The notes under the pieces are model-generated. The model did not search any database and was not told where the DNA came from. It saw only the letters and a program-made list of their open reading frames with translations. The translations under genes and the position numbers were made by a program. This document shows positions 8,039 through 56,569 of a DNA stretch of 64,000 bases, one piece after another (the stretch's first letter is position 1; each line of letters begins with the position of its first letter). The DNA is from Candidatus Muproteobacteria bacterium (GTDB lineage: Bacteria; Pseudomonadota; Gammaproteobacteria; Acidiferrobacterales; SPGG2): assembly GCA_003251795.1 (NCBI GenBank), contig QKEI01000055.1, forward strand, positions 8,593 through 72,592, read 5' to 3'.

Positions 8039-9208
8039 TCAATTAAGGGGATACTTGCCGTACACGCCATAGTCTTTTTGCGCTTCGATCATGGCGTAGA
8101 TGTTCTGGATCGGCACATCCGCGAGTATGTAATGCGAGGGCGAGAAGATATAACCGCTGCCCGGGGCCAGATTTTTCATGACTTCGAGCACGCCTTTTCT
8201 GACATCTTCTACCTGGCCGCGCGGCAGCAAGCGCTGCACGTCGAAGCCGCCGACAAAGGCGATCTTATCGCCATATTTTTGCTTGATGCCGGCCTGGTCC
8301 TTGTTGCCACCGGTCGGCTGCATCAAGCCGGAGAGATGCACGCCGAGCTCGACTTCGTCCGGAATGATCGGCGAGTAATCACCGCAGGAGTGCAGCTTGA
8401 TGAATATCTCTGGATTTTCCTTCTTGAACTCACTAAACATGTGCTGAAAACGCGGTTTCGCCAGCTCCCGCCATTGCACCGGCGATAGCATCATCGATTG
8501 CTGGGCACCGACATCGTCACCTACTCGGATCATGTCGACACCGAGCTTGACGGCATTTTTGCCGAGCGCCGTATAGTATTCGGTCAGGCCATCGAGCACG
8601 CCGTGGATAAGCTCGGGCTGATCGAACAAATACAAGAAGAAGTTTTGCGTGCCGACCAGATGCGCGTAGGCGGCTTCGATCAACGTCGAAGAAAGATCGA
8701 CGATAATGAAGTAATCGTCTTGATACGCCTTGCAAATGTCTTTGATCGGGTCCAGCAGGGCAGGGTCATTGGGGTCCGGCCACTTGTAGTTTTTCAGGTC
8801 CTCCAACGACGTGATCGGATGCGATTTAGGAAAGTTCTCCGGCACCACCTTGGCCGGTCCCCAGAACTCCTGAGTCTTTATGAATTGATGATGTTCTTCT
8901 TCCGTGCGCCCTTTCAGACCGCTCTTTCCGTAGCCCACGCCGAAATGGTTGGTCCAGGTCTCGCCGATAGGAATGGGGCGATGCGAGAACTCGGCGTTGA
9001 TGCCGATTTGGTAAATGATGGCGTCATTACCGAGTCGCAGCTCGAGCTCGGGGTTGTGCTTGAGCCCAGTGCCGGTCTTGGTGACGCCGTAGACACGGGC
9101 GATCTTTTCTTTGGCCTCGCTCTTCATACGATACAGCACCGGTACCCGGTCGACCTTTTCGTGACGCAGGACGCGGATAAAGCGCTCGCGGGGTTTCAGT
9201 TCTTTCAT
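8039..9208 (-). CDS. URO-D-family (MtaA/CmuA/MtvB-like) methyltransferase, candidate substrate:corrinoid MT-I
   Basis: URO-D TIM-barrel fold signature. The N-terminus RERF..L..EKVDRVPV and the HxC zinc motif (KLHSCGD) are present. I chose the ATG at 9208, which is preceded by GGAGG; the ORF-track N-terminal 50 aa is unlikely coding. Confidence 0.8.
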   Translation of the reverse strand: MKELKPRERFIRVLRHEKVDRVPVLYRMKSEAKEKIARVYGVTKTGTGLKHNPELELRLGNDAIIYQIGINAEFSHRPIPIGETWTNHFGVGYGKSGLKGRTEEEHHQFIKTQEFWGPAKVVPENFPKSHPITSLEDLKNYKWPDPNDPALLDPIKDICKAYQDDYFIIVDLSSTLIEAAYAHLVGTQNFFLYLFDQPELIHGVLDGLTEYYTALGKNAVKLGVDMIRVGDDVGAQQSMMLSPVQWRELAKPRFQHMFSEFKKENPEIFIKLHSCGDYSPIIPDEVELGVHLSGLMQPTGGNKDQAGIKQKYGDKIAFVGGFDVQRLLPRGQVEDVRKGVLEVMKNLAPGSGYIFSPSHYILADVPIQNIYAMIEAQKDYGVYGKYPLN

Positions 9209-9248
9209 GGGATTGCCTCCGGCCGTTGCGGGTGGTGTCCTAGGCCTA

Positions 9249-9269
9249 TAATATATTTTTGATATATTA
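9249..9269. promoter_or_regulatory. AT-rich palindrome TAATATAT-TTTTG-ATATATTA between the MT-II and MT-I genes
   Basis: Perfect 8-bp arms, read directly. It is the only AT-rich island in the 116-nt MT-II/MT-I gap. Confidence 0.4.
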
Positions 9270-9324
9270 CCGGCTTCGGCCGCCCCGTCAACCTGGGAAC
9301 GCGCCAAGTTATTGGCGTTTGGGC

Positions 9325-10861: not shown

Positions 10862-11533
10862 ATGCTGCAGAGTGAGATCAGCGCCTTCATTCGCGCGCAC
10901 ACAACGGTCGATGCGCCGCCCTTGTGCCCCGAGATCACACTGCATCTGGCGTCGGCGCTTATGCCGATTTGGGAGGCGAGAGAAGCTATGGGTAGCGCTA
11001 CACCACCACCCTATTGGGCCACAGCGTGGGCGGGTGGCCAGGCATTGGCCCGCTATGTGCTGGATCACCGGAGGCTGGTTCTGCATAAGCGCGTTTTGGA
11101 TTTTGGCTCCGGATCCGGGGTTTGCGCTATCGCCGCGGCAAAAGCCGGTGCCGCCAAGGTTCAGGCGGCGGAGCTTGACCCATTCGGTCTGCGAGCTATT
11201 GCTATGAATGCGGCGCTGAATACGGTGATCGTTCATACGATCTCTATCGATATGACTGTCGTCACCAGATGCAACTGGGACGTCGTACTGGCAGGTGATC
11301 TCTGGTACGAGCGCTTGTTCGCCGAGCGCGCTACTGCGTGGCTACGAAACCTGGCAACAAACGGTTGTATTGTCTTGTTAGGTGACATGCGACGTAACTA
11401 CTTTCCAAAACAGGGTATAGAAGAGTTGGCGCGATACTCTGTCGCCACACCCGTTGAGATCGAGCGCGAGCCGATTTCGACCGGCGTTGTTTGGCGCATG
11501 CTGCCCGATGGCATGAGGGCAGCTGTCAGCTGA
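10862..11533 (+). CDS. Class I SAM-dependent methyltransferase (COG3897 / Methyltransf_16-like)
   Basis: SAM motif I VLDFGSGSGVCAIAAAKAGA, then the acidic E of motif II (AAELD) and GDLWYE. It converges on metF with an 8-nt overlap. Confidence 0.7.
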   Translation: MLQSEISAFIRAHTTVDAPPLCPEITLHLASALMPIWEAREAMGSATPPPYWATAWAGGQALARYVLDHRRLVLHKRVLDFGSGSGVCAIAAAKAGAAKVQAAELDPFGLRAIAMNAALNTVIVHTISIDMTVVTRCNWDVVLAGDLWYERLFAERATAWLRNLATNGCIVLLGDMRRNYFPKQGIEELARYSVATPVEIEREPISTGVVWRMLPDGMRAAVS

Positions 11534-12461
11534 TATCGGCGTCGACGCTGAAGCCTTTGCCGTCCTTGGCGAGCGTAAACTCGCCGTCGATTACTGCATA
11601 GCTCCATTTTGCCGACTTGCGCAACCCGCCCAATGGGTACATGTGCACGCCGGCGATGCCGCAGTTGCCGTCGCTGGCGCGATAACGAGCGAGCTCCGTC
11701 AGCAGTCGGTCCGGCGCGGATACGGTCATGAGCTTAGCGAGGTTGCGAGCCTGCTTGGTCAGAAATCGCATGGACGGCCCGATGCCACAGGCTTTCGCGT
11801 GGTTCAATAGTGTCTTCAACGTCGCCAATCCGGGTATGCCGATATAAACAGGCAGCCGGTTGCCCTCCGCCTGAATCTTCCGGTCCCAGTCGATGATCGG
11901 CTGCGCGTCGAAACAGAACTGGGTAACGACATAAAGTCGCGCACCCGTGCGTTCGGCGAAATCGTTCTTCCACTTGAGCGCCTGTTTAATAGCCTCGTCG
12001 GCGATATCTGGGCTCCCCTCGGGATGGCCGGCCACCCCGATCTTGTTGATGCCATATCGATCGAACAGTCCGGTTTCCAGGAGCTGCATGGAGTCGCTGA
12101 ATTCACCCAGCGGCTTATCGATCGCGCCCGCGATCACCAGTGCCTGTGTCAATCCAACCTCCTGCTGCAAGCGCAGTAGACTGCGCTCAAGGAACGCCCT
12201 TGTGGGAATGCTGCGCGCGGCGAGGTGCGGCACCGGGTTGAAGCCTTCTTGCTGCAGGCGCTTAGCGACGGCGATGGTCTGGTCGAAATCCGACCCTGGC
12301 AGAAAAGTGATGTAGACGGTGGTGCCCGGACGCAGATGCTGGCGATAATCGGCGATCTTGGCGGCCGCCCCCGGGGTCGTTTCGGCGGTAAAGCCCGACA
12401 TCAAGTCGATGATTTGTTGCTTCACGTTGCCGCCGGCCGCGGCCTCGTTCGCCAGTGACAT
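11526..12461 (-). CDS. metF: Methylenetetrahydrofolate reductase (MetF-family, copy 1)
   Basis: MTHFR-fold motifs: TPGAA.., YITFLPG, VPHLAARS, GVAGHPEGSP, VTQFCFD. The start is ambiguous (ATG 12461 vs GTG 12482). Confidence 0.8.
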   Translation of the reverse strand: MSLANEAAAGGNVKQQIIDLMSGFTAETTPGAAAKIADYRQHLRPGTTVYITFLPGSDFDQTIAVAKRLQQEGFNPVPHLAARSIPTRAFLERSLLRLQQEVGLTQALVIAGAIDKPLGEFSDSMQLLETGLFDRYGINKIGVAGHPEGSPDIADEAIKQALKWKNDFAERTGARLYVVTQFCFDAQPIIDWDRKIQAEGNRLPVYIGIPGLATLKTLLNHAKACGIGPSMRFLTKQARNLAKLMTVSAPDRLLTELARYRASDGNCGIAGVHMYPLGGLRKSAKWSYAVIDGEFTLAKDGKGFSVDADIS

Positions 12462-12558
12462 GATTAACCCTGCAGCCTGCACGGAATAAGGCGTAAGGAA
12501 TCATCTTAGCATTCACCTCGCGCGCAGAGCTATGCATGCGGATCATATCTGACCAGCG

Positions 12559-13542
12559 TCAGGCGCGCGCTTCAGCAAGCTCTACCGTAATCTTTACCGG
12601 TCCCAGCAGGCGTTCGATCTCGCTGTATGACGGCGCTGCGGCCTTCGCGCGCGCACCCAGGGCCTCGCTCATGGCGCGCAGGTGCACCGGCGTGGTGCCG
12701 CAACAACCGCCGATGATACGCGCACCGGCATCACGCGCGAGGCAGGCGTAATCCGCCATAATCTGCGGGGTGCCGTCATACTCGATCTTGCCCCCCTTGC
12801 CGATATGCGGCACGCCACAGTTACTCTTGGCGACAATCACTTGATCGGCGCTGGCGCCTTTCTTGAGGCCGATCACCGAGTCGAGCAGCTGCGCCGGACC
12901 CACGCCGCAATTGGCGCCGAAGGCGATCGGTTTCACGTCGAGATCATGCGTAAGGCGTATCGCATCATGCGGCTTCATGCCCATCATGGTGCGCCCGCCG
13001 GTATCGAACGTCATGGTGGCCACGTACGGCAAACCGGCGCGCACGACACCTCGGATTGCTGCAAACAGCTCGTCATGCGAGTACATGGTTTCGATCCAGG
13101 CGATGTCGGCGCCGCCTTCTTTCAACGCAGCAGCTTGCTCGGCGAAGGCGTCTTCGGCTTCCTGCGCAGTGCGCTCCCCTAGCGGTTCCAATAGATCGCC
13201 CGTAGGTCCAATGTCGCCAGCGACGATGACGGTACGACCGGCCGCATCGGCAACCTCCCGTGCCAGTGTGGCGGCGGCACGATTGACTTCGTGCACGCGG
13301 CCTTCGATGCGATGCAGTTTGAAGCGGTAGCGGTTAGCGGTAAATGAATTGGTCAAAATGATGTCGGCACCCGCGTCGATGAAGCCCTGATGGATAGAGC
13401 ACACACGGTCCGGGTGGTCTATGCACCAGACCTCGCCGGCGGCGCCATTCGCGAGGCCGAGATCGAATAGGTTGGTTCCCATGGCGCCATCGGCCAAAAC
13501 GACATCTTTCTTTGCCAGTAGCTGGCTCAACGGGTTTGACAT
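12559..13542 (-). CDS. Homocysteine S-methyltransferase domain protein (MetH module-1-like, Zn-dependent)
   Basis: DGAMGT, GADIILTNSF, ANCGVGP and GGCCGTTP (the Zn Cys triad is intact). I chose the ATG at 13542 with GGAG upstream; the ORF-track extension is Arg-rich and overlaps the regulator gene. Confidence 0.85.
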   Translation of the reverse strand: MSNPLSQLLAKKDVVLADGAMGTNLFDLGLANGAAGEVWCIDHPDRVCSIHQGFIDAGADIILTNSFTANRYRFKLHRIEGRVHEVNRAAATLAREVADAAGRTVIVAGDIGPTGDLLEPLGERTAQEAEDAFAEQAAALKEGGADIAWIETMYSHDELFAAIRGVVRAGLPYVATMTFDTGGRTMMGMKPHDAIRLTHDLDVKPIAFGANCGVGPAQLLDSVIGLKKGASADQVIVAKSNCGVPHIGKGGKIEYDGTPQIMADYACLARDAGARIIGGCCGTTPVHLRAMSEALGARAKAAAPSYSEIERLLGPVKITVELAEARA

Positions 13543-13564: not shown

Positions 13565-14590
13565 TCAGGCCGCTTCCGATCGGCGGCGAGAAGGCGCACG
13601 CCTGCTTTGTATGCTTGTCCACAGCGACACCGTGAGTTTATCGCTTCTTGATTTGGCGGATGCGCTGAGGTGTCGGACGTTCGCATCGACCAGGCCCGCA
13701 GCGCGGCACCAGCCCATCACCTCATCATCCGCGAATCCGAGACGGCGATGTGCAAATTCGGTGCGCAAGAACTCCAGCTGGTGGCGCGCGAAGTCTACTA
13801 TCAACAGACGTCCCTCTGGTTTTAGCGTGCGCGCCGCCTCCGCCACGGCGGCGCCAGGGTTGTCGAGAAAGTGCAAGACGTGGTGAATCGTCACGGCGTC
13901 GAACGATGCATCGGGCACCGGCAGGTTGTAGATGTCGCCATGGCGCACTTGGCAATGGCGCAGGTTCAGCGCCTCCAGGTTCGCGCGCGCGACGGCAAGC
14001 ATCTCACGACTGCTGTCGATCCCGAGACCGCGCTTGATACGAGGCGCGAACACCTGCAGGATGCGCCCGGTACCCGTGCCAAGATCGAGCAGCTCCGCGA
14101 TGGGTTTGTCACTTAATGCCTCGAGCATAGCCTGTTCGACTTTCGCCTCGGCCACGTACAAGGAGCGAATCGAGTCCCAATCCGCAGCATTGCGTCGGAA
14201 GTATTCCGCTGCGGCTGCTGCATGTTCCTTAATAATGGTATCGAGTCGTTGCAGGTCACGACCAAGCTGGGGATCATTGGCCGGTACCAGCTCAAGTAGG
14301 TTGTGCGCCAGAAGTGCGCCCAAGCCGCGATCCGCCACGCGGTAAAACACCCATGCACCCTCCGGCGAACGCTCTACCAAACCGGCGTCGCACAGTAGCT
14401 TCAGATGGCGGCTTACGCGTGGCTGACTCTGACCGAGGATACGCGTGAGCTCTGATACCGTGAGCTCGGCGCGCCCCAGTAATGCCAACAGGCGCAATCG
14501 CGTATGCTCACCAGCTGCGCGTAAGGCTGTTAATAGCGGTTCCACGGATAGTGCGGCGGGTTTATTAAGAGTCGATACGTATATAAACAT
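13565..14590 (-). CDS. sahR: ArsR-type HTH fused to a SAM-methyltransferase-fold domain (SahR-like SAH-responsive regulator of the methionine/C1 cycle)
   Basis: The N-terminal ArsR wHTH (EHTRLRLLALL..LTVSELTRILGQSQPRVSRHLKLL) is followed by LDLGTGTGRIL and an acidic loop of a class I MT fold. It lies immediately upstream of the Hcy-MT and metF genes. The start is uncertain (ATG 14590 or GTG 14545). Confidence 0.7.
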   Translation of the reverse strand: MFIYVSTLNKPAALSVEPLLTALRAAGEHTRLRLLALLGRAELTVSELTRILGQSQPRVSRHLKLLCDAGLVERSPEGAWVFYRVADRGLGALLAHNLLELVPANDPQLGRDLQRLDTIIKEHAAAAAEYFRRNAADWDSIRSLYVAEAKVEQAMLEALSDKPIAELLDLGTGTGRILQVFAPRIKRGLGIDSSREMLAVARANLEALNLRHCQVRHGDIYNLPVPDASFDAVTIHHVLHFLDNPGAAVAEAARTLKPEGRLLIVDFARHQLEFLRTEFAHRRLGFADDEVMGWCRAAGLVDANVRHLSASAKSRSDKLTVSLWTSIQSRRAPSRRRSEAA

Positions 14591-14600
14591 ATCTTTATAT
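14581..14600. promoter_or_regulatory. Operator candidate ATATAA-ACATATCT-TTATAT
   Basis: Same arms and spacing. It overlaps the annotated ATG of the SahR-like regulator. Confidence 0.6.
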
Positions 14601-14802
14601 AACCCGTCAACCGACGGAACCCTTGCCCGTTAGCAGTTCAGCGCATCGCCGCTGTTCTGCGTGGTGGCACAGCAACGCGGAAGATGCATGCATGGTATGC
14701 GCTAGGCGCCGGCAATTCGTTTGCGCCATTGCAGTGCGTTGCTAAAATGCGGCAGGTTGTTGCTATCACAATGTCCGCCGCAGCTCGAAGGAGTGCGCAA
14801 AC

Positions 14803-15378
14803 ATGTACGCCAAACGCTTCCCGATTCCGGAGTTTAACCGTGACGAGCTCAAGGATTTGTCGTGGAGCGAGCCGAGCTTTCTCTCCAAAGACGAGATCGC
14901 TCAACTCATCGCCCGACAGAAGTCGGCAGACACTAACGCCTACGGCGGCTATGCGGTCAGCCCCGACGATGCGCTTTTTGCAAAGCTCAAGGTAGAGGGG
15001 AGTCACAGGCACGCAGTGATGTGCGTGTTGCCCGATAAACCGGTGAGCCTGCTCGGACGTTCGTGCGCTTGGGCGTTGCAGCGTGCCATTGTGCTCGATA
15101 GCCTCGACCCTGACCGTTGCCAAGCCATCGTCGATTGGCGTACACCGCGGCCGATGAACACCCGTTTGGGGCCCGAGGACGGTGTGTCCATAGCTGGCGG
15201 TATTATCTATGCTATCTGCGGCCACAAGGTCGGCGACCACTGGGTAGGCAACCGTACCCGCCTAGAGCGGACATGGCGCGGACTACCGGCAGGTGAAGGT
15301 CTAGCAGTGCTTTCGAGTTATAACCCGGAGATCAACGATTTTCACGACTGCAACCTCTACTTCTCCTGGGCAGCCTAG
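14803..15378 (+). CDS. Hypothetical protein
   Basis: 191-aa ORF with a coding-like composition and no motif I recognise. Confidence 0.4.
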   Translation: MYAKRFPIPEFNRDELKDLSWSEPSFLSKDEIAQLIARQKSADTNAYGGYAVSPDDALFAKLKVEGSHRHAVMCVLPDKPVSLLGRSCAWALQRAIVLDSLDPDRCQAIVDWRTPRPMNTRLGPEDGVSIAGGIIYAICGHKVGDHWVGNRTRLERTWRGLPAGEGLAVLSSYNPEINDFHDCNLYFSWAA

Positions 15379-17550: not shown

Positions 17551-18042
17551 ATGGTTAATAGGCGTGGTTTCATAAAGGTTAGTTGTACCGGCGTTGCCGG
17601 ACTTGTGGTTGCTCGACATGGCATGCATTCTGTGGCGGCGCAGTCGCCTCAGACATCGGTCTACCCGATTGTCGATATTGCGCCGTTGTCGTCCATTGCC
17701 CGCGGTGCTGCCATTCCGTTCAGTTATCCCGACGAGCGCTCGCCGGCGCTGCTGCTACGGGTCAACGAACCCGCTGCCGCAGGCGTCGGTCCGAACAACG
17801 AAATCGTTGCCTATTCCACCCTGTGCACCCATAAGGGATGTCCCGTCAGTTACAAGCCTGAGCGCAAGCTGTTCATCTGTCCATGCCACTGGAGCACCTT
17901 CGATCCCGTGAAGTCGGGCACGCTCGTGATCGGCCAGGCGAGCGAAGCGCTGCCGCAGATTAATCTGCGCGTGCTCGCGGGCATGGTGCAGGCGCAGGGT
18001 GTGAGCGGCCTGATTTACGGCCGTTACACAAATATCGTTTAG
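17551..18042 (+). CDS. aioB: Arsenite oxidase small (Rieske) subunit with Tat signal
   Basis: Twin-arginine NRRGFIK, Rieske CTHKGCP...CPCHWSTFD and the C-terminal GLIYGR..N.. are typical of AioB. Confidence 0.85.
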   Translation: MVNRRGFIKVSCTGVAGLVVARHGMHSVAAQSPQTSVYPIVDIAPLSSIARGAAIPFSYPDERSPALLLRVNEPAAAGVGPNNEIVAYSTLCTHKGCPVSYKPERKLFICPCHWSTFDPVKSGTLVIGQASEALPQINLRVLAGMVQAQGVSGLIYGRYTNIV

Positions 18043-18055
18043 CTGGGATGCGCTA

Positions 18056-20545
18056 ATGGCCACGGTTCCGCTGCCGCCGCCGGATGCCCAGCGGTTCAAT
18101 ACGGTCTGTCAATTCTGCATCGTCGGTTGCGGTTATCAGGTCTATAAGTGGCCGCTGGGTCGTGACGGCGGCCCGGCGCCCGCCGACAACGCCCTCGGCG
18201 TTGACTACCGACAGCCGTTGCCGGCCCTGAGCGATTGGATCTCGCCTTTGATGCACTCACAAATCACCGGACGCGACGGGCGACGTTACAACGTTGTCAT
18301 CGTGCCGGATCATACCTGCGCGGTGAATGAGGGGTTGGCGTCGGTGCGCGGTGGCGGGTTGGCACAAACGCTCTACTCGCCCGAGCGGCCGACCAAGGCA
18401 CGGCTGTCGGAACCACTGATCGCTGTCGGCGACACACATACGCCGCTCGGCTGGGACCAGGCGACCGATCTCGGCGCGCGGGTGATCAAAGCGGTAGTGG
18501 ATCGCTGGGGTGCCGACGCCGTCGGCATGAAGTTCTATGACCATGGCGGTGGCGGTGGTGGCTTCGAGAATAACTGGGCGATCGGCCGCTTTTTCTTTTC
18601 CGGGCTTGGCACGCGCACCGCATCAATCCACAACCGTCCGGCTTACAACAGCGAGATCCATGCCGCCGGCGACGCCGGCCTGGCGGCGCTGACCAATGCG
18701 TATCTGGACGCGCAGCTAGCCGATACCATAGTCATTGTCGGTGCCAACCCCTACGAGACGCAAAGTAACTACTACCTCACCCATATGATTCCGAACCTGA
18801 ACGGGGCGACGCTCAAACGCAAGCGCGCCATGTTCGGCGCTGAAGCGGTTGAGCGGGCGCGCATGATCATCATCGATCCAAGGCGAACCATGACGGTCGC
18901 AACCGCTGAGGCGGCGGGCGGCAAGGATCGTGTATTGCATTTGCAAATTGAGCCAGGCGCTGACATCGCATTACTCAATGCTATCGCCCGCGTCGTGCTC
19001 GAGCGGCGCTGGCACGATGTCGCTTTCATCCGCGAACGCACTGAATGGCAGACCTTCGAGTCCTACCAGCGCTCTACATTGGCTGTCGATCGCCCGTTGC
19101 AGGAGGTCGTGAACGAGGCTGCACGCGTAGCCGGCGTACCGGCGTCGCAGATCCGTCAAGCTGCGCAATGGATTGCCGCCCCCAAGCGCGATGGTGCGCG
19201 GCGGCGCACGTTGTTGCACTACGAGAAAGGTTTGATCTGGGGCTTGAAGAATTACGAGAACATCGCTGCTCTGGTTGATCTGGGATTGTTGAGCGGCAAT
19301 GTCGGCAAGCCGGGCACCGGCGTCAGTCGGCTTGGCGGCCACCAGGAGGCCTATGTGCGCCCGCCATACCCAGGTGGTCGACCCGCACTCAATGTTGACG
19401 AGGCCGTACGTCGGGGTGAGGTCAAGTGTTACTGGATCGGTGGCTGCAATCCCGTGCTGACGACGTTACGGGCAGAGGCGATGGAGGCGGCGCTGCGCGA
19501 GCGCGGCGCTGTCGTGCGCGAAGTGCTGTTGCAGACACAGGGTAAGCCAGTGGGAGAGCGTGTCACACGCATTGTCGAGGCGTTGAAGGCGGGCGGCATG
19601 TTTATTCTAACCCAGGATATTTATATGACCGCGAGCGCACGCTACGCACATCTGGTGTTGCCCGCGGCGCAATGGGGCGAGATGAATCTGACGTCGATCA
19701 ATGGTGAACGGCGCTTGCGTCTATATCAACGTTTCATGGACCCGCCAGGTGCGGCGATTCCGGACTGGATGATCATGGCGCGTTTCGCGCGGCGTTTGCG
19801 CGCGCTCTACCTGCAAGACCGCAATCCGCTAAAGGCCAATCGCTTCCTTGATTTTGACTGGAAGGGAGACGAAGACGTGTTTATCCATGCGCGCTATCAG
19901 TTCAAGGGCGACGGGAGCGATGCAATGGAGGGCTACGCAGGTGTCACTTATGACCTTTTGCGCAGGCTTGGCAACAACGGCATTCAGACGCCAACACAGA
20001 TCGTAAACGGCGTGCCTGTCGGTAGCGTGCGCCTGCACGAGGACGGACGCTTCTTCACCGCTTCGGGGCGGGCACGTTTTATCCCTGCACCGCAACCCTG
20101 GCCGGGTTATGCCGCCCAAGTAACGCGCCAACGCGCGCGTTACCCTTTCTGGGTGAATAACGGCCGTAGCAACCACATTTGGCAAACGTTGTACCATCAC
20201 CAGTTGATACCGTTCTACAGTGAGCACAACCCGATGCCGTTTCTCGAGATCCACGCGCAGGACGCGAAGCGTCTGGGTGTGGCTTCTGGTGATCTGGTCG
20301 AGCTCAGTAACGACGTCGGCAAGGTGCGGGCGTTGGCCTATCTGTCGGACGCCGTGAAGCCCGGTCACACCTTCATGATATTCGGCCAACCGCGCGGTGC
20401 AGTAGGTGATTTGGTATCGGATCATGTCGATCCGACGACAACCATTCCTTATTATAAAGGTGCCTGGGCAGCAATTCGCCGCATCAGTGGCGCGCCCGAG
20501 ATCGCCAAGACCGTGTCATTCCTGCCACAGAACGTCGCCCAATGA
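18056..20545 (+). CDS. aioA: Arsenite oxidase large (Mo-bisPGD, [3Fe-4S]) subunit
   Basis: N-terminal CQFCIVGCGY (C-x2-C-x3-C), plus DHGGGGGGFEN, IHNRPAYNSE, LHLQIEPG, HYEKGLIWG, GGHQEAYVRPPYPG, LPAAQWGEMNLTSINGERR and IPYYKGAW. All of these match AioA as I recall it. Confidence 0.9.
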   Translation: MATVPLPPPDAQRFNTVCQFCIVGCGYQVYKWPLGRDGGPAPADNALGVDYRQPLPALSDWISPLMHSQITGRDGRRYNVVIVPDHTCAVNEGLASVRGGGLAQTLYSPERPTKARLSEPLIAVGDTHTPLGWDQATDLGARVIKAVVDRWGADAVGMKFYDHGGGGGGFENNWAIGRFFFSGLGTRTASIHNRPAYNSEIHAAGDAGLAALTNAYLDAQLADTIVIVGANPYETQSNYYLTHMIPNLNGATLKRKRAMFGAEAVERARMIIIDPRRTMTVATAEAAGGKDRVLHLQIEPGADIALLNAIARVVLERRWHDVAFIRERTEWQTFESYQRSTLAVDRPLQEVVNEAARVAGVPASQIRQAAQWIAAPKRDGARRRTLLHYEKGLIWGLKNYENIAALVDLGLLSGNVGKPGTGVSRLGGHQEAYVRPPYPGGRPALNVDEAVRRGEVKCYWIGGCNPVLTTLRAEAMEAALRERGAVVREVLLQTQGKPVGERVTRIVEALKAGGMFILTQDIYMTASARYAHLVLPAAQWGEMNLTSINGERRLRLYQRFMDPPGAAIPDWMIMARFARRLRALYLQDRNPLKANRFLDFDWKGDEDVFIHARYQFKGDGSDAMEGYAGVTYDLLRRLGNNGIQTPTQIVNGVPVGSVRLHEDGRFFTASGRARFIPAPQPWPGYAAQVTRQRARYPFWVNNGRSNHIWQTLYHHQLIPFYSEHNPMPFLEIHAQDAKRLGVASGDLVELSNDVGKVRALAYLSDAVKPGHTFMIFGQPRGAVGDLVSDHVDPTTTIPYYKGAWAAIRRISGAPEIAKTVSFLPQNVAQ

Positions 20546-33539: not shown

Positions 33540-34409
33540 ATGTTAGGCCAACAGATCATGAGTGGTTTAGCCACCGGCAGTCTCTATGCTTTGACTGCCG
33601 TGGCGGTGGTCGTGGTCTTCCGCAATACCCGCACTATTAACCTCGCGCAGGGTGATTTCTCGATGATGGGCGCGTTTATCGCCATCATTCTGCTGAAGAC
33701 TTACGGACTCAACTACTATGCGACCATTGTCTTGTGCGTGCTCGCGATCATGGCATTGGGCGTGCTTACCGAGCGCCTGGTCATGCGTCCGATTGCCGAC
33801 TCCGACTGGTTAACGCTGTTTACTGCCACGCTCGGTGTCTACTACATCTTGCACGGCGTTGCCGGTTGGATCTGGGGGCGCGACACCAAGGCATTTCCGG
33901 TTACGTTCGATCCGACGCCGGTGCATATCTTCGGCACAGTCGTCAGTCACGGACACCTAATCAACATGGGTTGGGCGGCGGCCATCGGCGTCGTGTTGTA
34001 CGTATTTTTCAAGTACACCAAACAGGGCATCGCCATGCGCGCTGTTACTGACGACCCGGAAACCGCCAAGCTCATGGGCATCCCCGTCCGGTTCATTGTC
34101 ACACTGACGTGGGCGATGGCGGGATTTCTCGCGGCGTTCATTGGCATCCTGATCGCGCCCATCATCTATGTGGCGCCGGAAATGATGGACGAGGTGTTGA
34201 TCAAGGGTTACGTCGCCGCGGTTTTCGGTGGGCTCTATTCGATCCCAGGGGCGATCATCGGCGCGCTCATGATCGGCGTGGCGGAAAATCTGGCCGGTGG
34301 TTATCTGGGGTCACATTACAAGACGGCCACCGCGTTTGCCATGATTGTGGTCTTGCTTACGTTCAGGCCGCAGGGGCTGTTCGGTATTCAGAAGCGCCGT
34401 GAGATCTAA
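33540..34409 (+). CDS. livH: Branched-chain-amino-acid-type (HAAT) ABC transporter permease
   Basis: LivH-like membrane protein, first gene of a five-gene HAAT cassette. Confidence 0.85.
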   Translation: MLGQQIMSGLATGSLYALTAVAVVVVFRNTRTINLAQGDFSMMGAFIAIILLKTYGLNYYATIVLCVLAIMALGVLTERLVMRPIADSDWLTLFTATLGVYYILHGVAGWIWGRDTKAFPVTFDPTPVHIFGTVVSHGHLINMGWAAAIGVVLYVFFKYTKQGIAMRAVTDDPETAKLMGIPVRFIVTLTWAMAGFLAAFIGILIAPIIYVAPEMMDEVLIKGYVAAVFGGLYSIPGAIIGALMIGVAENLAGGYLGSHYKTATAFAMIVVLLTFRPQGLFGIQKRREI

Positions 34410-34427
34410 GCGCCACGGGAGTAGCGA

Positions 34428-35519
34428 GTGAACGAGATGGTTGCGGCGGCGCGAACGTCTGCGCCGATAGCAAATCGACAGGCTGTTGCCGCGCTGAAAG
34501 CGAGATTCGCGCAACAGAACTGGATCTTCGCCGGTGTCTTGTTTGCATTGCTGGCGCTAGTGCCACTGCTGCCGGTGGTCGAAGGCTGGATGGCGACACA
34601 GGCGGCGCTGGTGATCATCTATATCCTGGCAGCGCAAGGCGTAAGCGTGTTGACCGGCCACACGGGTTTGGTAACCGTAGGTCACGGCGGTTTCCTCGCC
34701 ATTGGTGCCTATACTTCGGCGCTGATGAGCCACTATCTGGGTGCGGATCTGCTGAGCGGTATGATTTGCGGCGGCCTCATGGCCGCGCTTATCGGCTGCC
34801 TTTTGGGTCTGATCTTTCTCAGGCTTGCCGGCGCTTTCATGGCCATCGGTACCTTGGGTTTCGCCTTCTTCATCGGCACCATCGTCAACAACGTGCCGAT
34901 CTTCAATGGACGCACGGGTTTCTCGTTACCGCCGAATAATCTCTTCGGTGTCATCGATATCGGCGATTTCGGGTTCTACTACGTGTGCCTCGTGACCTTG
35001 GCATTAATGACGTTATTCATGTACAGCCTAGTGCGGTCCGGCGTCGGTCGCGCGTTTAAAGCGCTGCGCGATGCCGAGAAGGCGGCACAAAGCAGCGGCG
35101 TAAACCGCCTCTTCTACCGGACTTTGGCCTTTACCATCAGCGCCTTTATCACCGGCGTTGCCGGCGCCTTGAATGGCCACATCGTGAGCTTCGTGTCTGC
35201 CGAGGTCTACGCCGACATCTGGTACTCGGTAGACATTCTGGTCGCAGCCATCGTCGGCGGTTCGGCCATGTTGTTCGGCCCGTTCATCGGTGGTGTCTTT
35301 ATCGTCATGGTGCCGTTCTTCTTCGAGGAGCTGGCAGATTTCTCCTTTATCCTCAAGGGCATCGTCTTGATTGGTGTGCTCATGTTGGCACCAGCAGGCG
35401 TGGCCGACGTCGCGGCCAGACCGTTTCGTGCGATGCGGCAACGCGCGCTCGCTCAGGCGGGCGGCGCGACAGCTCGTGAGCACGGCAGAACAGGTGGATC
35501 GCCTGGGGGCGCGGAATGA
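34428..35519 (+). CDS. livM: HAAT ABC transporter permease
   Basis: LivM-like membrane protein. Confidence 0.85.
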   Translation: MNEMVAAARTSAPIANRQAVAALKARFAQQNWIFAGVLFALLALVPLLPVVEGWMATQAALVIIYILAAQGVSVLTGHTGLVTVGHGGFLAIGAYTSALMSHYLGADLLSGMICGGLMAALIGCLLGLIFLRLAGAFMAIGTLGFAFFIGTIVNNVPIFNGRTGFSLPPNNLFGVIDIGDFGFYYVCLVTLALMTLFMYSLVRSGVGRAFKALRDAEKAAQSSGVNRLFYRTLAFTISAFITGVAGALNGHIVSFVSAEVYADIWYSVDILVAAIVGGSAMLFGPFIGGVFIVMVPFFFEELADFSFILKGIVLIGVLMLAPAGVADVAARPFRAMRQRALAQAGGATAREHGRTGGSPGGAE

Positions 35520-36289
35520 CTCAGCTGCGCTGCGAAAACATTACGGTGAGCTTTGGCGGTGTTGTTGCTTGCAACAACATCAGTCTGGAAGTGCCGACGG
35601 GCAAGATCGTCGGTCTGATCGGTCCTAATGGCGCCGGTAAGACAACGCTATTCAACGTGCTCAGCCGATTCCAGGATCATGATAGCGGCCATATCTATTA
35701 TCGCGATCAAGACATCGACCGCAAAAAGCCGCACCAGATGGTCGAGCTCGGTATGGCGCGCACCTTTCAAAACATCAATCTTTTCGGTGAGCAATCCACG
35801 CTCGATAACATCCTTATTGGTGCGCACCATCTCATCGGCAATCCCTTCGCCGACATGTTCTCGCTGCCGGCGGCGCGCCGCACAGAGCGCTCGTTGGTGC
35901 AGCGGGCAAACGAGATCGCGGAGATGCTGCACATGCAAGACGAACTCGACACCCTCGTCAAGAATCTGCCCTATGGCTATCGCAAGCGCGTTGAGCTGGC
36001 GCGCGCGCTGGCATCGCAGCCCGAGTTGATCCTGCTCGACGAACCGGTGGCCGGTTGCAACGATGAAGAGACCGATGAGCTCAGGGGCATCGTGCAACGC
36101 TTAAATCGCGAGCTCGGCATCACGATTTTTCTGGTTGAGCACGATATGTCGATGGTAATGAATGTGTGCGACTACATTTACGTGATCAACTTCGGCTCCA
36201 ATCTTGCCGATGGCACGCCGGCGGAAGTGCAGGCGAACGCGGATGTCATCAGCGCTTATTTAGGTGAGGAGCACGATGACGCTGCTTAG
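35516..36289 (+). CDS. livG: HAAT ABC transporter ATP-binding protein
   Basis: Walker A GPNGAGKTT, the signature LPYGYRKRVE.. and Walker B LILLDEP. Confidence 0.9.
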   Translation: MTQLRCENITVSFGGVVACNNISLEVPTGKIVGLIGPNGAGKTTLFNVLSRFQDHDSGHIYYRDQDIDRKKPHQMVELGMARTFQNINLFGEQSTLDNILIGAHHLIGNPFADMFSLPAARRTERSLVQRANEIAEMLHMQDELDTLVKNLPYGYRKRVELARALASQPELILLDEPVAGCNDEETDELRGIVQRLNRELGITIFLVEHDMSMVMNVCDYIYVINFGSNLADGTPAEVQANADVISAYLGEEHDDAA

Positions 36290-36995
36290 GCTGGAAAACG
36301 TGGTGGCGAGTTACGGTGCCGTACGCGCGCTGCAAGGTATCTCGATTGATGTGCAGAGTGGCGCAATCGTTGCCCTGCTCGGCGCCAACGGTGCCGGCAA
36401 GTCGACCACGCTAAAGACGATCTCGGGCATGGTGCGACCGGCCTCGGGTTTCGTCGAGTACGACGGGCAGCGCCTCGAGGGCAAGACCCCGAATCAGATC
36501 GTCCGTCTGGGTATCGCCCAGATACCTGAAGGCCGCAAGATCTTCAAGGACTTGACGGTGTCGGAAAATCTGCGCATGGGCGCCTATACGCGCAAGGACA
36601 AGGCGGGCATCGAACAAGACCAGGAGCTGGTGTTTGTGCTGTTCCCGATCCTCAAGGAACGGGCCAGGCAGCTCGGCGGCTCCTTAAGTGGCGGCGAGCA
36701 GCAGATGTTGGCGATCGGCAGGGGCCTGATGGCGCGACCGCGGTTGCTGCTGCTAGATGAGCCGTCGCTGGGATTGGCGCCGCTGCTGGTCGCGGACATC
36801 TTCCAGGCCCTGCGCAGAATCAATAAGGAGCGCGGTACCACATTGCTGATCGTCGAGCAGAACGCACATGTGGCGTTGAAGAACGCTAATTTCGGTTATG
36901 TGCTACAAGTCGGCAGAGTGGCCACTGAGGGTACGTCGGAGGAGCTACAACGTAACAGGGAGGTAGTCGAGTCGTATATGGGAACACAGCAGTAG
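36276..36995 (+). CDS. livF: HAAT ABC transporter ATP-binding protein
   Basis: Walker A GANGAGKST, LSGGEQQML and LLLLDEPS. Confidence 0.9.
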   Translation: MTLLRLENVVASYGAVRALQGISIDVQSGAIVALLGANGAGKSTTLKTISGMVRPASGFVEYDGQRLEGKTPNQIVRLGIAQIPEGRKIFKDLTVSENLRMGAYTRKDKAGIEQDQELVFVLFPILKERARQLGGSLSGGEQQMLAIGRGLMARPRLLLLDEPSLGLAPLLVADIFQALRRINKERGTTLLIVEQNAHVALKNANFGYVLQVGRVATEGTSEELQRNREVVESYMGTQQ

Positions 36996-37071
36996 TGCAA
37001 GAGTGCCATGGAACGGTGTGCTGTAAATGGGGTCAAGAAGTCTTAATTAGGAGGCTCAACTGGAGGTCGAT

Positions 37072-38259
37072 ATGAAACGTCTGATGAAGTTAGTGTTAAC
37101 GCTTGTGAGCAGCGGTGTGCTCGCCTTGCTCTCGGTTCATGCGTCAGCCGCGAATGATCCGGGGGTTAGTGCCAAGGAGATACTTATCTGCTCTTACCAA
37201 CCCATGACCGGCAAGATATCGAGTTACTTCCGCATGGGAAAGGGGGCAGATGCGTGGTTCAAGTATGTCAACGATCAGGGTGGAATCAACGGCCGCAAGA
37301 TCGATTACAAAATGGTTGATGACAAGTACGAGCCGGCACGGACCATGACAGTAGTCAAGCGCTTTATTGAGAGAGACAAGTGTTTTGCCATTGTCTCACC
37401 GCTGGGTTCCGCGCCTACAGCCGCTGTTATCGATTACATCACATCCAAGGACGTGCCGTTGATCGGTGCCGGTACCGGTGCGGAAAAGAACCTGACCTAT
37501 CCAAGTAAGTGGGTATTCCCGCTGTATCCGAGTTATTTCACCGAAGGGCAGCAGCTGGTGCGTTTTGCCAAGGAAGTATTTGGTGCCAAGACAGTGGCCT
37601 TGCTCTACCAGAATGACCCATCCGGCAAGACCCATATCAAGGGCATCGAGTCGGTGCTCGATAAATATGGCGTCAAGCTGGTGGCCCAGGAGGGTTACGA
37701 GCAGAAGGAAGTGGACGTCAGCGCGCAGGTGATTGCCATGAAGAACGCCAATCCAGACGCGGTTATTTGTTCTTGCGCGCCGGAGCCGGCGGCCAAGTTC
37801 TACACCGAGCGCAAGAAGCTCGGCTGGAACGTGCCGGTGGTCAACGTGTTCTTCGGCAAGAGCCCCAAGGTTCCCGAGCTGGCCGGCAAGGACGCGGTCG
37901 AGGGCGTGTACTTCTCTACCATCTTCCGTGACTTCAACTCGCCGGCACCGCAGATTCAACAGGCCAAGGAGTTGCTGAAGAAGTACTATCCGGAGGAGCA
38001 ACCTGACGCGATCCATCTCTGGGGTTTCGCCGGTGCGCAGGTGTTCACCGAGGCCCTGCGCCGCATGGGGCCGGACAACATCACGCGCGCGCGATTGGTG
38101 GAAACCCTGGAAAGCATCCAGGACTGGAAGGGTAGCGTGGTGCCGTCGGTCTCCATCGGTCACGGCAACGCCCCCGAGCACTTCATCGTCAAAGACATGG
38201 CCTGGGTGGTTTATAAGAACGGCGAATTCCAGGACTTCAAGCCACCCTGGGGCGGGTAG
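37072..38259 (+). CDS. HAAT-family periplasmic solute-binding protein (type I PBP)
   Basis: A signal peptide followed by a LivK-like domain. The ligand is unknown. Confidence 0.85.
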   Translation: MKRLMKLVLTLVSSGVLALLSVHASAANDPGVSAKEILICSYQPMTGKISSYFRMGKGADAWFKYVNDQGGINGRKIDYKMVDDKYEPARTMTVVKRFIERDKCFAIVSPLGSAPTAAVIDYITSKDVPLIGAGTGAEKNLTYPSKWVFPLYPSYFTEGQQLVRFAKEVFGAKTVALLYQNDPSGKTHIKGIESVLDKYGVKLVAQEGYEQKEVDVSAQVIAMKNANPDAVICSCAPEPAAKFYTERKKLGWNVPVVNVFFGKSPKVPELAGKDAVEGVYFSTIFRDFNSPAPQIQQAKELLKKYYPEEQPDAIHLWGFAGAQVFTEALRRMGPDNITRARLVETLESIQDWKGSVVPSVSIGHGNAPEHFIVKDMAWVVYKNGEFQDFKPPWGG

Positions 38260-38509: not shown

Positions 38510-39856
38510 ATGGCAGAAATTATCGGTAAGGCGATTCCGCCTGAGCGGAAGCGGGTGATCGATACCCTGCACTTGCGGGAACCCGACAAGGTACCCGTGG
38601 GCCTGTGGGGCACGATCGAAGGCTATCAAAATCTGCGGCGTGGCCTGGGCATGGACTACAAGGCCGACGCGCGCGATTACCGTACGGGCTCGACCAGCTG
38701 GACCACGGATGTGGCCTTTGAACTCGATCTGGCGGAAAAACTGGGTTTGGACTTTGTGCGCATATCGATGGGTCCCCCCGGGGGCTCGCCGGGGTTTCGC
38801 GACATCAGGTTCGAGGAGGTGCCGTTCGACATGGGCATTCCGCCACCCGACGTCGACATCAACGTGGACGAGTGGGGCGTGGTGCGCAAGTGGACGCCGC
38901 ATGAACAGGGCGGCTACTACGAGATGATCGGCTATCCGCTGTATCACGCGACCAGCGCGCCGTTGGAAGAGGGGCTCAAGATCCTCGAGGAGTTTCCATG
39001 GCCGGACCACACGGATGAGTCCTGTTGGAACGACGCGCCGATTCCCGGCATGACGCTGCGTCAATATTGCAAGTACATCCGGGAGGAGACCCCCTTTGCG
39101 GTCATGGGTCAGGGCGGGCGCGGCGGCTTGTTCGAACAGGCAAAGTACATGGTGGGCTACGCCAAGATCTTCTCCGATTTTATCGAGTCGCCCGAATTTC
39201 TCGACGCGATGCTGACCAAGTTGACCGATCTTGAAATCGAAGCCAACAAGGCCTTCCTCGATCAGGTCGGCGAGTACATCGATTGGTTACGCATGAGCCC
39301 AGAGGATCTGGCGAGCGAGAAGACTGCGTTTATCTCGCTGAAGATGTTCAATAAACAGCTGAAGCCGCATTACATGCGCGCGATCCAGGAAACTAAGGAG
39401 TACTACTTGAAGAAAAACCCGCTTGGCCGTATTCAGTTTCATAGCTGCGGCGCCATCCCCGAGGTGTTCATGCGCGGGCTCATCGACTGCGGCGTTGATG
39501 GTTATGATAGCCTGCCCCCAAAGGTGGCGCGTCACTCCAATCCGGCCGCAAAGAAACGCCAGCTTGGCAGGGAGATGTTCTTCTACGGTGGCATCGACGT
39601 GCAGGAGACTCTGCCTTGGGGCAAGCCGGAGGACGTGCGTGCCGAGGTGCGTGCCAGGATCTGGGAGATGGGTCACGGTGGTGGTTACCTATTGAGCTCG
39701 TCGCATCGTCTCGAGCATGACGTGCCGATTGAGAACACACTCGCCATGATCGAGGAGGCACGTGAGTATGGCGTTTATCCGTTGCCCAAGGATCCTCCAC
39801 CCGGGGCCGATATCGGCGAGGAAACGGAAGAATGGGGTGGTCTGAAGAAGGATTGA
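38510..39856 (+). CDS. URO-D-family methyltransferase, second MT-I candidate
   Basis: URO-D-like TIM-barrel pattern with HxC (QFHSCGA) and the N-terminal REPDKVPV motif. It shares the ..EEAREYGVYPL / ..EAQKDYGVYGKYPL C-terminal motif with the 8039-9208 paralogue. Confidence 0.8.
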   Translation: MAEIIGKAIPPERKRVIDTLHLREPDKVPVGLWGTIEGYQNLRRGLGMDYKADARDYRTGSTSWTTDVAFELDLAEKLGLDFVRISMGPPGGSPGFRDIRFEEVPFDMGIPPPDVDINVDEWGVVRKWTPHEQGGYYEMIGYPLYHATSAPLEEGLKILEEFPWPDHTDESCWNDAPIPGMTLRQYCKYIREETPFAVMGQGGRGGLFEQAKYMVGYAKIFSDFIESPEFLDAMLTKLTDLEIEANKAFLDQVGEYIDWLRMSPEDLASEKTAFISLKMFNKQLKPHYMRAIQETKEYYLKKNPLGRIQFHSCGAIPEVFMRGLIDCGVDGYDSLPPKVARHSNPAAKKRQLGREMFFYGGIDVQETLPWGKPEDVRAEVRARIWEMGHGGGYLLSSSHRLEHDVPIENTLAMIEEAREYGVYPLPKDPPPGADIGEETEEWGGLKKD

Positions 39857-39902
39857 ATGCCCCAGCCAGTATTGTCGTCGATTGGCTGTCCGAGGGATAA
39901 GC

Positions 39903-40739
39903 ATGCCGCTGCAAATCGAAACTGAGAAAGAGTTTGATATCGAAGATCTGAAGCACGATATCGACGCGACGCGCAAGACTGACCGTTGGAGCGAGGCGCC
40001 GGCGGACGTCAAAGACCTGTTTCATCAGATCGAGTGGAATATTATCGACGGGGAACACGCTGAAACGCCCAGCCTCATCAATCCCGCGCTGGAAAAGGAT
40101 GTGTCGGCGCGTACGCTCATCGCCGGTCCGATGGCGACTGGCATCGCTGAGGTAGGCCGGCGTTTCAAGATGGATGAGTATTTCCTGCCTGAAGTGATGA
40201 TGTCGGCCAAATGCATGCATGCGGCACTGGCGATATTGAAACCGTTGATCATCGCTGAGAAAACGGAAGAGATCGGTACCGTGGTCGTCGGTACGGTGCA
40301 GGGCGACTTGCACGACATCGGCAAGAAAATCGTCGCCATGATGTTGGAGGCAGCGGGTTTTACCGTGTTCGATCTCGGTGTGACCGTACCACCGGAAGAT
40401 TTCATCGCCGCCATCAAGGAGCACAAACCGCAGATCGTCGGCTTCTCCGCTCTGCTAACCACCACCATGAACATGCAATGGGAGACTATCAAAGCAATCC
40501 AAGCGGAGGGTCTGCGTGAACAGGTTAAGGTATTCGTCGGCGGCGCGCCCATCAGCCAGGGGTGGTGCGACAAAATCGGTGCCGATGCCTATGCCGCCGA
40601 TGCACTGATTGCCGTGGAAAAAGCCAAGGCCTGCGTGCAAGAATTCCGTGATCTTAAGGGAGGCGATCCGGCGCTGCATGCCGCCATGTTGGCGCTGGAT
40701 GCCGAACGCATGGCGCAGAAGGCCGCCGTCGCGGGCTGA
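39903..40739 (+). CDS. Corrinoid (B12-binding) protein, second copy
   Basis: GDLHDIGKKIV (DxHxxG), SALLTTTM and a GGAP loop, with an N-terminal cap domain. Confidence 0.85.
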   Translation: MPLQIETEKEFDIEDLKHDIDATRKTDRWSEAPADVKDLFHQIEWNIIDGEHAETPSLINPALEKDVSARTLIAGPMATGIAEVGRRFKMDEYFLPEVMMSAKCMHAALAILKPLIIAEKTEEIGTVVVGTVQGDLHDIGKKIVAMMLEAAGFTVFDLGVTVPPEDFIAAIKEHKPQIVGFSALLTTTMNMQWETIKAIQAEGLREQVKVFVGGAPISQGWCDKIGADAYAADALIAVEKAKACVQEFRDLKGGDPALHAAMLALDAERMAQKAAVAG

Positions 40740-47194: not shown

Positions 47195-47214
47195 ATATAA
47201 AGATCTTTTTATAT
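47195..47214. promoter_or_regulatory. Operator candidate ATATAA-AGATCTTT-TTATAT
   Basis: Perfect 6-bp inverted arms with an 8-bp spacer. One of three identical-architecture sites in the window. Confidence 0.6.
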
Positions 47215-49810: not shown

Positions 49811-49821
49811 ACTTTTTCCTG

Positions 49822-50718: not shown

Positions 50719-50835
50719 GTGCGTTTGTTGCCCGTGAACTTCAACCTATGCCACCACTCGACGGTCTGCCGCATGGATCAAAATAATGAAGCGAAGGCGC
50801 TGTGTCAGCGCCTTCGCTTCCAGTGCCACGACCCT

Positions 50836-51759: not shown

Positions 51760-51833
51760 AACATCCTCCTTCTCCACGTGGGTTGAGACTTATTTTATTT
51801 TCGCAAGACCTTGGAACCTCGCGTTCGTGCGCG

Positions 51834-52673: not shown

Positions 52674-52890
52674 TCGTCTCCCCGGTGGCTCCGATGTTTC
52701 ATTATTGTTATTGCTGCCATGGCTTCAATGCAGCCGTCATTGTAATTTAACTGTTCCACAGTTGTGGAAGAGTCACAACACTTTCACGACCTACGCTCAG
52801 GTGGTCAAGTGAAGCCTACTCATGCCTATTATGAGAAAAAGGTCATGTCCGACCAAGCCTTTGCGAGCATCGTGACATACGCTTGACCAT

Positions 52891-52910
52891 ATATAATAAC
52901 TTACTTATAT
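52891..52910. promoter_or_regulatory. Operator candidate ATATAA-TAACTTAC-TTATAT
   Basis: Same arms and spacing, ending 10 nt before the GTG of the ArsR-ArsC fusion. A TTGACC lies 16 nt upstream of the TTATAT arm, a possible -35/-10 pair. Confidence 0.55.
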
Positions 52911-52919
52911 TCGATCGTC

Positions 52920-53708: not shown

Positions 53709-53743
53709 GCATCGGCAGTCTTATGTGCACGCCAGCCCGTGAC

Positions 53744-54316: not shown

Positions 54317-54330
54317 GCCGAACGTACAAC

Positions 54331-56412: not shown

Positions 56413-56569
56413 GCTCGACACGAGGTAAGCGCGTAGCCGCCGCTCGCATTACCTAATCTAATGAGCTCAATACGATAAATGAATTGGACAAGGCTTTGCT
56501 TTTGAGAGATTTTGCTCAGACGTGCCCGCAGTGGGCGAACCTTGGTTCGGAACCTCACGGAGACAGTCG

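Follow-up and report, generated by a model that had tools for sequence, protein, structure and literature searches.

Identical inverted repeats at three promoters of an uncultured gammaproteobacterium probably represent two different operators of ArsR-family repressors

The inverted repeat ATATAA-N8-TTATAT occurs at exactly three sites (14581-14600, 47195-47214 and 52891-52910; hereafter sites 1, 2 and 3) in the 64,000-nucleotide stretch of contig QKEI01000055.1 analysed here as a whole (the window), which comes from a Candidatus Muproteobacteria bacterium. We conclude that two kinds of operator, both for ArsR-family repressors, are probably represented here: boxes for the regulator SahR at sites 1 and 2, and one of the two boxes (box B) of the operator of an ArsR-ArsC fusion regulator (ArsRC) at site 3. 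The repeats themselves are real and not a product of chance: none of 100 dinucleotide-preserving shuffles of the window yielded any match, and the looser pattern ATAT-N12-ATAT retrieved only the same three sites, against a chance mean of 0.34. All three lie upstream of genes, overlapping or adjoining promoter elements. A preliminary description of this DNA had read the repeats as one identical motif placed at promoters tied to ArsR-type helix-turn-helix (HTH) proteins. Their non-random occurrence, their location in promoter regions and their prediction as operators of ArsR-family HTH proteins all held in our analysis. The single motif is not supported, as site 3 lacks the conserved centre AAAGATATCTTT of the full 20-bp SahR palindromes and belongs instead to an operator of two boxes that recurs at ArsR-ArsC fusion genes, many of them with boxes of low SahR matrix score.

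Results

Sites 1 and 2 as predicted SahR boxes

A scan of species-representative genomes provided 80 loci with sahR orthologues, from gammaproteobacterial metagenome-assembled genomes (MAGs), Azospirillum, Magnetospirillum and other alphaproteobacteria, to which the window protein is 53-73% identical over its full length. In 72 of these 80 loci a 20-bp palindrome (up to two arm mismatches) is found 24-150 nt upstream of sahR; its consensus, ATATAAAGATATCTTTATAT, which we derived from the orthologues independently of the published sequence logos, is a full palindrome with invariant positions 3-5, 9, 12 and 16-18. On a matrix built from the orthologue upstream sites with the window excluded (33 distinct training sites, range 21.3-39.6), sites 1 and 2 scored 38.5 and 32.3, respectively, both inside the training range and both carrying the box with its conserved centre, the next independent background match in the window reaching 2.8. 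Scores over 904 kb of sahR loci were bimodal, with 74 matches at or above 27 and only five between 15 and 27, and just eight of the 82 arm matches (up to two mismatches) in these related loci were not strong SahR boxes. The two boxes and the genes that they precede are the following:

14581-14600, no strand assigned: site 1, predicted SahR box 1, ATATAAACATATCTTTATAT; exact match, matrix score 38.5; predicted autoregulatory operator of the sahR-bhmT operon
47195-47214, no strand assigned: site 2, predicted SahR box 2, ATATAAAGATCTTTTTATAT; exact match, matrix score 32.3; overlaps the -10-like TATAAA of the metF promoter
13565-14545, minus strand: sahR; Pfam HTH_5 (residues 30-73) and Methyltransf_11/25 (residues 168-264)
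14605-14610, minus strand: TTGACG, a -35-like hexamer recognised by reading the sequence, which immediately precedes box 1 when read along sahR
12559-13542, minus strand: bhmT (betaine-homocysteine S-methyltransferase), second gene of the operon; NCBIfam NF005718, 443.7 bits (cutoff 338)
11526-12482, minus strand: divergent MTHFR-like gene, probable third member of the operon; Pfam MTHFR, weak at 32 bits (cutoff 24)
46273-47169, minus strand: metF (methylenetetrahydrofolate reductase); Pfam MTHFR, 280 bits; NCBIfam TIGR00676, 303 bits (cutoff 293.7)
45413-46270, minus strand: gene of a homocysteine-binding-domain protein, like the MetH N-terminus and partial, co-oriented 3' of metF; Pfam S-methyl_trans, positions 1-174 of 283

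The regulator has the SahR architecture, an N-terminal ArsR-type HTH followed by a C-terminal S-adenosylmethionine (SAM)-dependent methyltransferase-like domain, and it shares with SahR both orthology and linkage to the SAM cycle, the correspondence with published SahR proteins being one of genera and not of locus tags. Novichkov et al. reportedly described SahR in 2014 as an S-adenosylhomocysteine (SAH)-responsive ArsR-family repressor of the SAM cycle. The published operator is a 20-bp palindrome and the regulon has sahR, ahcY, metF, metH and metK as its core, with bhmT as a genome-specific member (PMC4239095); Azospirillum and Magnetospirillum are listed among the SahR genomes (Table S1; PMC4239095, Leyn et al. 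2014). Our predictions agree with that regulon in the 20-bp palindrome and in the membership of sahR, metF and bhmT, site 1 being placed in the promoter region of sahR-bhmT and site 2 in that of metF, and the suggested role of the repeat in methionine and C1-cycle control is upheld for these two sites.

The preliminary description had site 1 overlapping the start of the SahR-like gene, which is true of the first in-frame ATG of the mechanical open reading frame (ORF) but not of the real start, GTG 14545: nine orthologues aligned with the window protein all begin at the equivalent position, most of them with in-frame stops upstream. Box 1 therefore lies 36-55 nt upstream of the sahR start. The promoter scan called no full sigma-70 promoter at site 1; a TTGAC hexamer is present at the equivalent place in four other sahR loci (L005, L006, L013 and L017). 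Site 2 is positioned 25 nt upstream of the metF ATG (47169), and the promoter TTGACT-N16-TATAAA described there, its -10 hexamer overlapped by the box, can be recognised by eye on the minus strand but was not called by the scan, because the final T is missing from its second hexamer. By analogy with characterised SahR, a dimer bound at either site would occlude the -10 hexamer and the transcription start region, so that SahR would repress both the sahR-bhmT and the metF operons and would leave the DNA when SAH accumulates.

The match of bhmT to NF005718 is at equivalog level and begins at residue 49 of the mechanical ORF; the MTHFR-like gene is co-oriented with sahR and bhmT. A metF homologue follows sahR immediately in 75 of the 80 orthologous loci, in most of them with metH-like genes after it. 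As sahR-metF-metH is the usual order, the window has a split operon, with sahR-bhmT and a separate metF unit each provided with a box of its own. The gene 3' of metF also matches the NCBIfam model of the MetH N-terminus and is not followed by pterin- or B12-binding domains; it could be the remnant of a truncated or split MetH.

Site 3 as a probable part of a two-box operator of an ArsR-ArsC fusion gene

The third repeat does stand before an ArsR-ArsC fusion gene, as previously described, ending 9 nt and not 10 nt before the GTG start codon (52920). Its SahR matrix score of 18.1 is lower than those of all 33 distinct training sites and of the 74 strong matches, its centre TAACTTAC has no resemblance to the AGATATCT of SahR boxes, and the gene that it precedes lies outside the SAM cycle. 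The fusion gene and its upstream region contain the following features:

52875-52894, no strand assigned: box A of the predicted ArsRC operator, ACATACGCTTGACCATATAT; encloses the -35 hexamer TTGACC; fusion-box matrix 20.7, SahR matrix -0.5
52891-52910, no strand assigned: site 3, box B of the predicted ArsRC operator, ATATAATAACTTACTTATAT; exact arms; SahR matrix 18.1, fusion-box matrix 10.5
52883-52911, plus strand: promoter of the fusion gene, TTGACC(52883)-N17-TATATT(52911); promoter scan, 10 of 12 positions
52920-53708, plus strand: ArsR-ArsC-like fusion regulator of 262 residues; Pfam HTH_5 and LMWPc

Boxes A and B are two overlapping 20-bp palindromes with a common middle half-site, and site 3 overlaps both the spacer and the -10 hexamer of the promoter. 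Full-length relatives of the fusion protein are few in the protein database; four of them (L084, L086, L087 and L092; 62-73% identical) form with it a clade, whose promoters align as ATATAyGCTTGACC-rTATATAw-N7-CyTATATT, with conserved arms and TTGACC and variable spacers. The layout, with box A as ATATAyGCTTGACCrTATAT around the -35 hexamer, is common to the window and L084-L092. On the SahR matrix the box B of L084 scored 21.5, barely inside the training range and with invariant position 9 broken, and those of L087, L086 and L092 scored 13.8, 3.7 and -0.3. The SahR likeness of box B is therefore not conserved.

The same layout extends to a wider family. A metagenome scan retrieved about 33 full-length ArsR-ArsC fusions, of which at least 23, with 49-61% identity, carry a box B of the form ATATA[T/C]G-N6-C[G/A]TATAT about 7-9 nt before the start codon, and about 17 of these 23 have box A, ATATATGCTTGACCATATAT, as well. 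The 23 family box B sites, from which the fusion-box matrix was built (training range 16.3-33.1), do not exceed 13 on the SahR matrix. Box A of the window, at 20.7, falls within the fusion-box range; box B has the position and geometry of the family but at 10.5 scores below it, since positions 6, 7 and 15 differ. A 54%-identical homologue in an ArsP operon (L088) shows the same two-box layout, and more distant ArsB-linked fusions, like the arsRC-arsB type of Leptospirillum ferriphilum, have ATATTTC-N10-GAAATAT. The possibility that ArsB or ArsP usually follows the metagenomic fusions was considered and rejected, as both mostly gave no matches; it is ACR3 that most of the fusions examined precede. 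An ACR3-like ORF follows the fusion directly in 11 of the 13 loci examined (by sequence likeness, three of the ORFs being incomplete), and two of these 11 were confirmed as ACR3 (TIGR00832, more than 360 bits). Such arsRC-acr3 units make up a sizeable metagenomic family (loci L094-L150), marine sediment being one of its sources, with the two-box operator highly conserved and with starts that appear leaderless.

The end of the -10 hexamer is 7-9 nt from the start codon both in the window and in its orthologues, and no Shine-Dalgarno sequence is found; the transcript is probably leaderless. The fusion protein would bind at its own promoter, on boxes A and B and thus over the -35 and -10 hexamers alike, a position that would fit autorepression of a gene whose transcript probably has no leader. 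On the strength of this comparative evidence site 3 most likely lies in an operator through which the fusion protein represses its own gene, and this operator is characteristic of ArsR-ArsC fusion genes as a family.

Further conserved palindromes are present in the interval that separates phnC from the fusion gene, TTCCACAGTTGTGGAA (52754-52769), kept in L084 and L086, and ATGAGAAAAAGGTCAT (about 52828-52845), kept in L084, L086, L087 and L092, some of these copies with one or two arm changes. Both may be sites of the neighbouring LysR regulator or of a phosphate-starvation regulator, for the divergent phnCDE promoter.

The fusion protein and its doubtful relation to arsenic

The HTH region of the fusion protein belongs to the ArsR/SmtB winged-helix type (NCBIfam ArsR subfamily NF007528, 109.4 bits, cutoff 97), and its ArsC part stays below the equivalog cutoff (TIGR02691, 143 bits against 174). 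The residues on which an arsenical signal would depend are largely gone. In the ArsR domain, which contains no cysteine at all and so none of the alternative Cys triads, ELTVGEL replaces the arsenite-binding motif ELCVC(D/E)L, the equivalents of Cys32 and Cys34 being absent; the 23 fusions of the wider family keep the motif as ELCVCEL, and in the alignment of the window clade five members have ELTVGEL or ELSVGEL and two have ELCVSEL or ELCVGEL. The ArsC part, aligned with Bacillus subtilis ArsC and other fusions, keeps the P-loop CFGNSCRS (CX5R) and the Cys82 equivalent but has lost Cys89 to Leu (HCP to HLL), so that the Cys10-Cys82-Cys89 relay of thioredoxin-coupled ArsC (pI258/B. subtilis type) is incomplete. 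The ArsB- and ArsP-linked homologues retain both the ArsR cysteines and Cys89 of ArsC. Searches of the window with ArsB, ArsP and ACR3 sequences (tblastn) found no arsB, acr3 or arsP homologue. With the cysteines lost, ArsC below cutoff, no pump and conserved phosphonate neighbours, the label "arsenic resistance" is doubtful for this gene and the proposed link of the repeats with arsenic resistance is weak; the protein may now sense something other than arsenite.

The neighbours in question form a phosphonate island (48911-63080), which comprises phnC, phnD and phnE, a PhnZ/TmpB-like HD oxygenase (53744-54373), a DmmA/Fer2 reductase, a phn-type LysR (TIGR03339, 328 bits), a 521-residue Rieske oxygenase, a phn_DUF6 membrane protein, a 2-hydroxyacid dehydrogenase, a phosphonoacetaldehyde-dehydrogenase-like gene and a PhnA-like hydrolase. 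The Rieske oxygenase may take over the step that a 2-oxoglutarate dioxygenase usually performs ahead of the HD oxygenase. Synteny is kept in L084, L086 and L087, with the phosphonate-type ABC transporter, fusion gene, HD-domain gene, reductase, LysR and Rieske oxygenase; the L092 contig is too short for the comparison.

A similar recognition helix in the two regulators (QPRVSRHL and QPKISRHL) had been put forward as an argument for a common operator. Escherichia coli ArsR is an autoregulated repressor. In strain K-12 it is 51% identical to the N-terminal domain of the fusion protein and has the identical helix QPKISRHLA, yet its ars promoter shows a different inverted repeat, TAAGTCA-N10-TGACTTA, with a single central ATATAT and no ATAT-N12-ATAT arms. 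An operator can therefore not be predicted from the identity of the helix, which is a generic feature of the family, and we discarded it as evidence of a shared site.

Genes for an arsenite oxidase, aioB and aioA (TIGR02694, 153 bits, cutoff 96; TIGR02693, 970 bits, cutoff 359), are found at 17551-20545 on the plus strand, 3 kb from sahR and on the opposite strand to it, after a 191-residue gene of no assigned function (14803-15378). The divergent arrangement of sahR and orf191-aioBA is kept in an Acidiferrobacterales MAG locus (L004, 1392-4386). The window thus does contain a real arsenic gene, but neither a SahR-type nor an ArsRC-type box was found at its promoter.

A fourth candidate and the corrinoid methyltransferase clusters

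Allowing two mismatches in ATATAA-N8-TTATAT added a single window site, at 9246. We rejected it (9246-9265; SahR matrix -1.2, fusion-box matrix 0.2) as a fourth member of the motif, because a conserved palindrome of another kind, AATATAT-N5-ATATATT, is found there, at the -10 hexamer of a gene for a URO-D-type methyltransferase. This palindrome (9250-9268), also present in L004, overlaps the -10-like TAATAT of a TTGACG-N16-TAATAT promoter (TTGACG at 9286-9291, minus strand) that serves the URO-D-type gene (8039-9208), and is probably the site of a regulator other than SahR or the fusion protein. The gene is part of a corrinoid methyltransferase cluster with a 634-residue putative corrinoid activase, a B12-binding protein and a pterin-binding protein. 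A second corrinoid methyltransferase module (38510-40739, plus strand), with URO-D-like and B12-binding genes, adjoins a branched-chain-type ABC transporter (33540-38259).

Discussion

If the three repeats are two operators, as we favour, the identity of their arms has to be accounted for. The SahR and ArsRC families would both use ATATA-type half-sites in the same 20-bp geometry, and in the window clade box B would have changed symmetrically, its positions 6 and 15 becoming A and T. This state is found in the window and in L084; L087 has one half-site changed and L092 neither. As judged from these orthologues, the identity of the site 3 arms with those of SahR boxes is a lineage-specific drift of the ArsRC box. 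The drift could stem from relaxed constraint, from a changed specificity of the fusion protein or from capture of the box by SahR. We considered a co-variation of the residue before QPK (Ser versus Val/Ile) with positions 6 and 15 of box B, which was not seen, L094, L102 and L092 having Val or Ile together with family-type boxes.

Several observations weigh against our assignment of site 3. A and T at positions 6 and 15 occur in none of the 23 family boxes, compared with 63 of 66 SahR half-sites in that state; box B of the window fits the SahR matrix (18.1) better than the fusion-box matrix (10.5); and it matches every position that is invariant in SahR boxes. Moreover, all training sites of the SahR matrix are autoregulatory, so that there may be genuine targets with weaker scores, and the power of the footprint at site 3 is limited because it comes from five clade orthologues with intergenic regions 74% identical overall. 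The metagenomic contigs do not reveal whether their source genomes have sahR.

These observations lead to the alternative that all three sites are SahR operators, the fusion gene having been recruited into the SahR regulon and the phosphonate island tied to the SAH level. We consider this unlikely, but several points speak for it. Apart from the exact SahR-type arms and the matched invariant positions, 18.1 is far above the next independent background of 2.8, the L084 box reaches the training range, and the symmetrical change of positions 6 and 15 to the SahR state is confined to the clade that also lost the arsenite-binding cysteines. A metabolic link is possible too, given that the HD oxygenase resembles TmpB and that BhmT is SahR-controlled; the product of TmpB is glycine betaine, the substrate of BhmT. 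On the other side stand the missing SahR centre, a score below the whole training set, the uneven scores of the orthologous boxes and a two-box layout that is older than the clade and is found at fusion genes whose boxes score low for SahR. The cross-talk between the two regulators suggested in the preliminary description is thus left as follows: binding of SahR at site 3 is possible from its SahR-type arms, but it would not be conserved among the orthologues. It is also tempting to speculate on a combined scenario, to which we attach rather little weight, in which the fusion protein lost its arsenite cysteines, moved into the phosphonate island and acquired SahR-type arms at box B, so that SahR and the fusion protein share operators, the latter perhaps sensing phosphate or arsenate through its P-loop. 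If true, shared operators would tie the methyl cycle both to the cleavage of carbon-phosphorus bonds and to the provision of betaine-type methyl donors.

Cross-talk in the reverse direction, i.e. the fusion protein also binding the SahR boxes through ATATA-N10-TATAT arms and providing a second input to sahR and metF, appears improbable. The two proteins share 43% identity across 46 residues of their HTH regions, and on the fusion-box matrix sites 1 and 2 rank second and third in the window (15.2 and 11.9, site 3 itself having only 10.5). Nevertheless, both scores fall below the fusion training range, and position 7, a G in 40 of 46 family half-sites, is A in SahR boxes. Just as improbable is that site 3 is mere AT-rich promoter sequence, the relic of a decaying operator to which no regulator binds in this lineage: the -10 hexamer TATATT falls on the right arm, neither matrix has box B within its range, the right arm of L086 is degenerate and the fusion protein is devoid of ligand-binding cysteines, but in the window and in L084 the arms are still perfectly palindromic after changes in both of them, no promoter element coincides with the left arm, box A remains intact and within range, and the HTH of the fusion remains above the ArsR subfamily cutoff.

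Our preferred assignment, SahR boxes at sites 1 and 2 and an ArsRC operator at site 3, draws on systems that are already known. The window resembles the described SahR systems in its HTH_5 plus methyltransferase-like regulator, in the 20-bp palindrome at the promoters of this gene and of metF, and in having bhmT in the regulon; it differs in the host, an uncultured gammaproteobacterium related to Acidiferrobacterales and outside the published study, and in that sahR-bhmT and metF are separate units with a box each, sahR-metF-metH being the usual operon. SamR of Xanthomonadales is a distant SahR homologue of the ArsR family that controls methionine genes through a 24-bp motif (PMC4239095). As an ArsR-family paralogue with a palindrome partly like the SahR box, it is a precedent for look-alike operators; it is, however, a regulator of methionine genes with a longer motif, whereas the regulator at site 3 is an ArsR-ArsC fusion.

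ArsRC regulators are known from the arsU-arsRC-arsB locus of L. ferriphilum (PMC4443643) and from an ArsRC biosensor of Paracoccus (PMC11672702). With these the window protein has in common the two-domain fusion and the promoter-embedded AT-rich palindromes directly before the gene, its homologues preceding ArsB, ArsP or ACR3. It departs from them in having ELTVGEL and not ELCVCEL, in the missing ArsC Cys89 and the ArsC score below the equivalog cutoff, and in its place in a phosphonate island with no arsenite pump nearby. Neither the two-box ArsRC operator consensus nor a cysteine-less phosphonate-island branch was met in the literature compared, in which no search was aimed at either.

SahR boxes and autoregulated ArsR-type operators are known kinds of elements; it is the lineage and the arrangement that are new, and nothing here overturns the current understanding. 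A more general lesson is that matching palindrome arms can mislead, look-alike 20-bp operators being separable only by their centres and by comparative context. Our study extends the SahR regulon to an uncultured gammaproteobacterial lineage, with an operator consensus obtained from 80 genomes, and describes, for the ArsR-ArsC fusion regulators, a predicted operator of two boxes that is embedded in the promoter. Within this family, the cysteine-less branch in the phosphonate island may respond to a signal other than that of the canonical arsenite site, which is gone.

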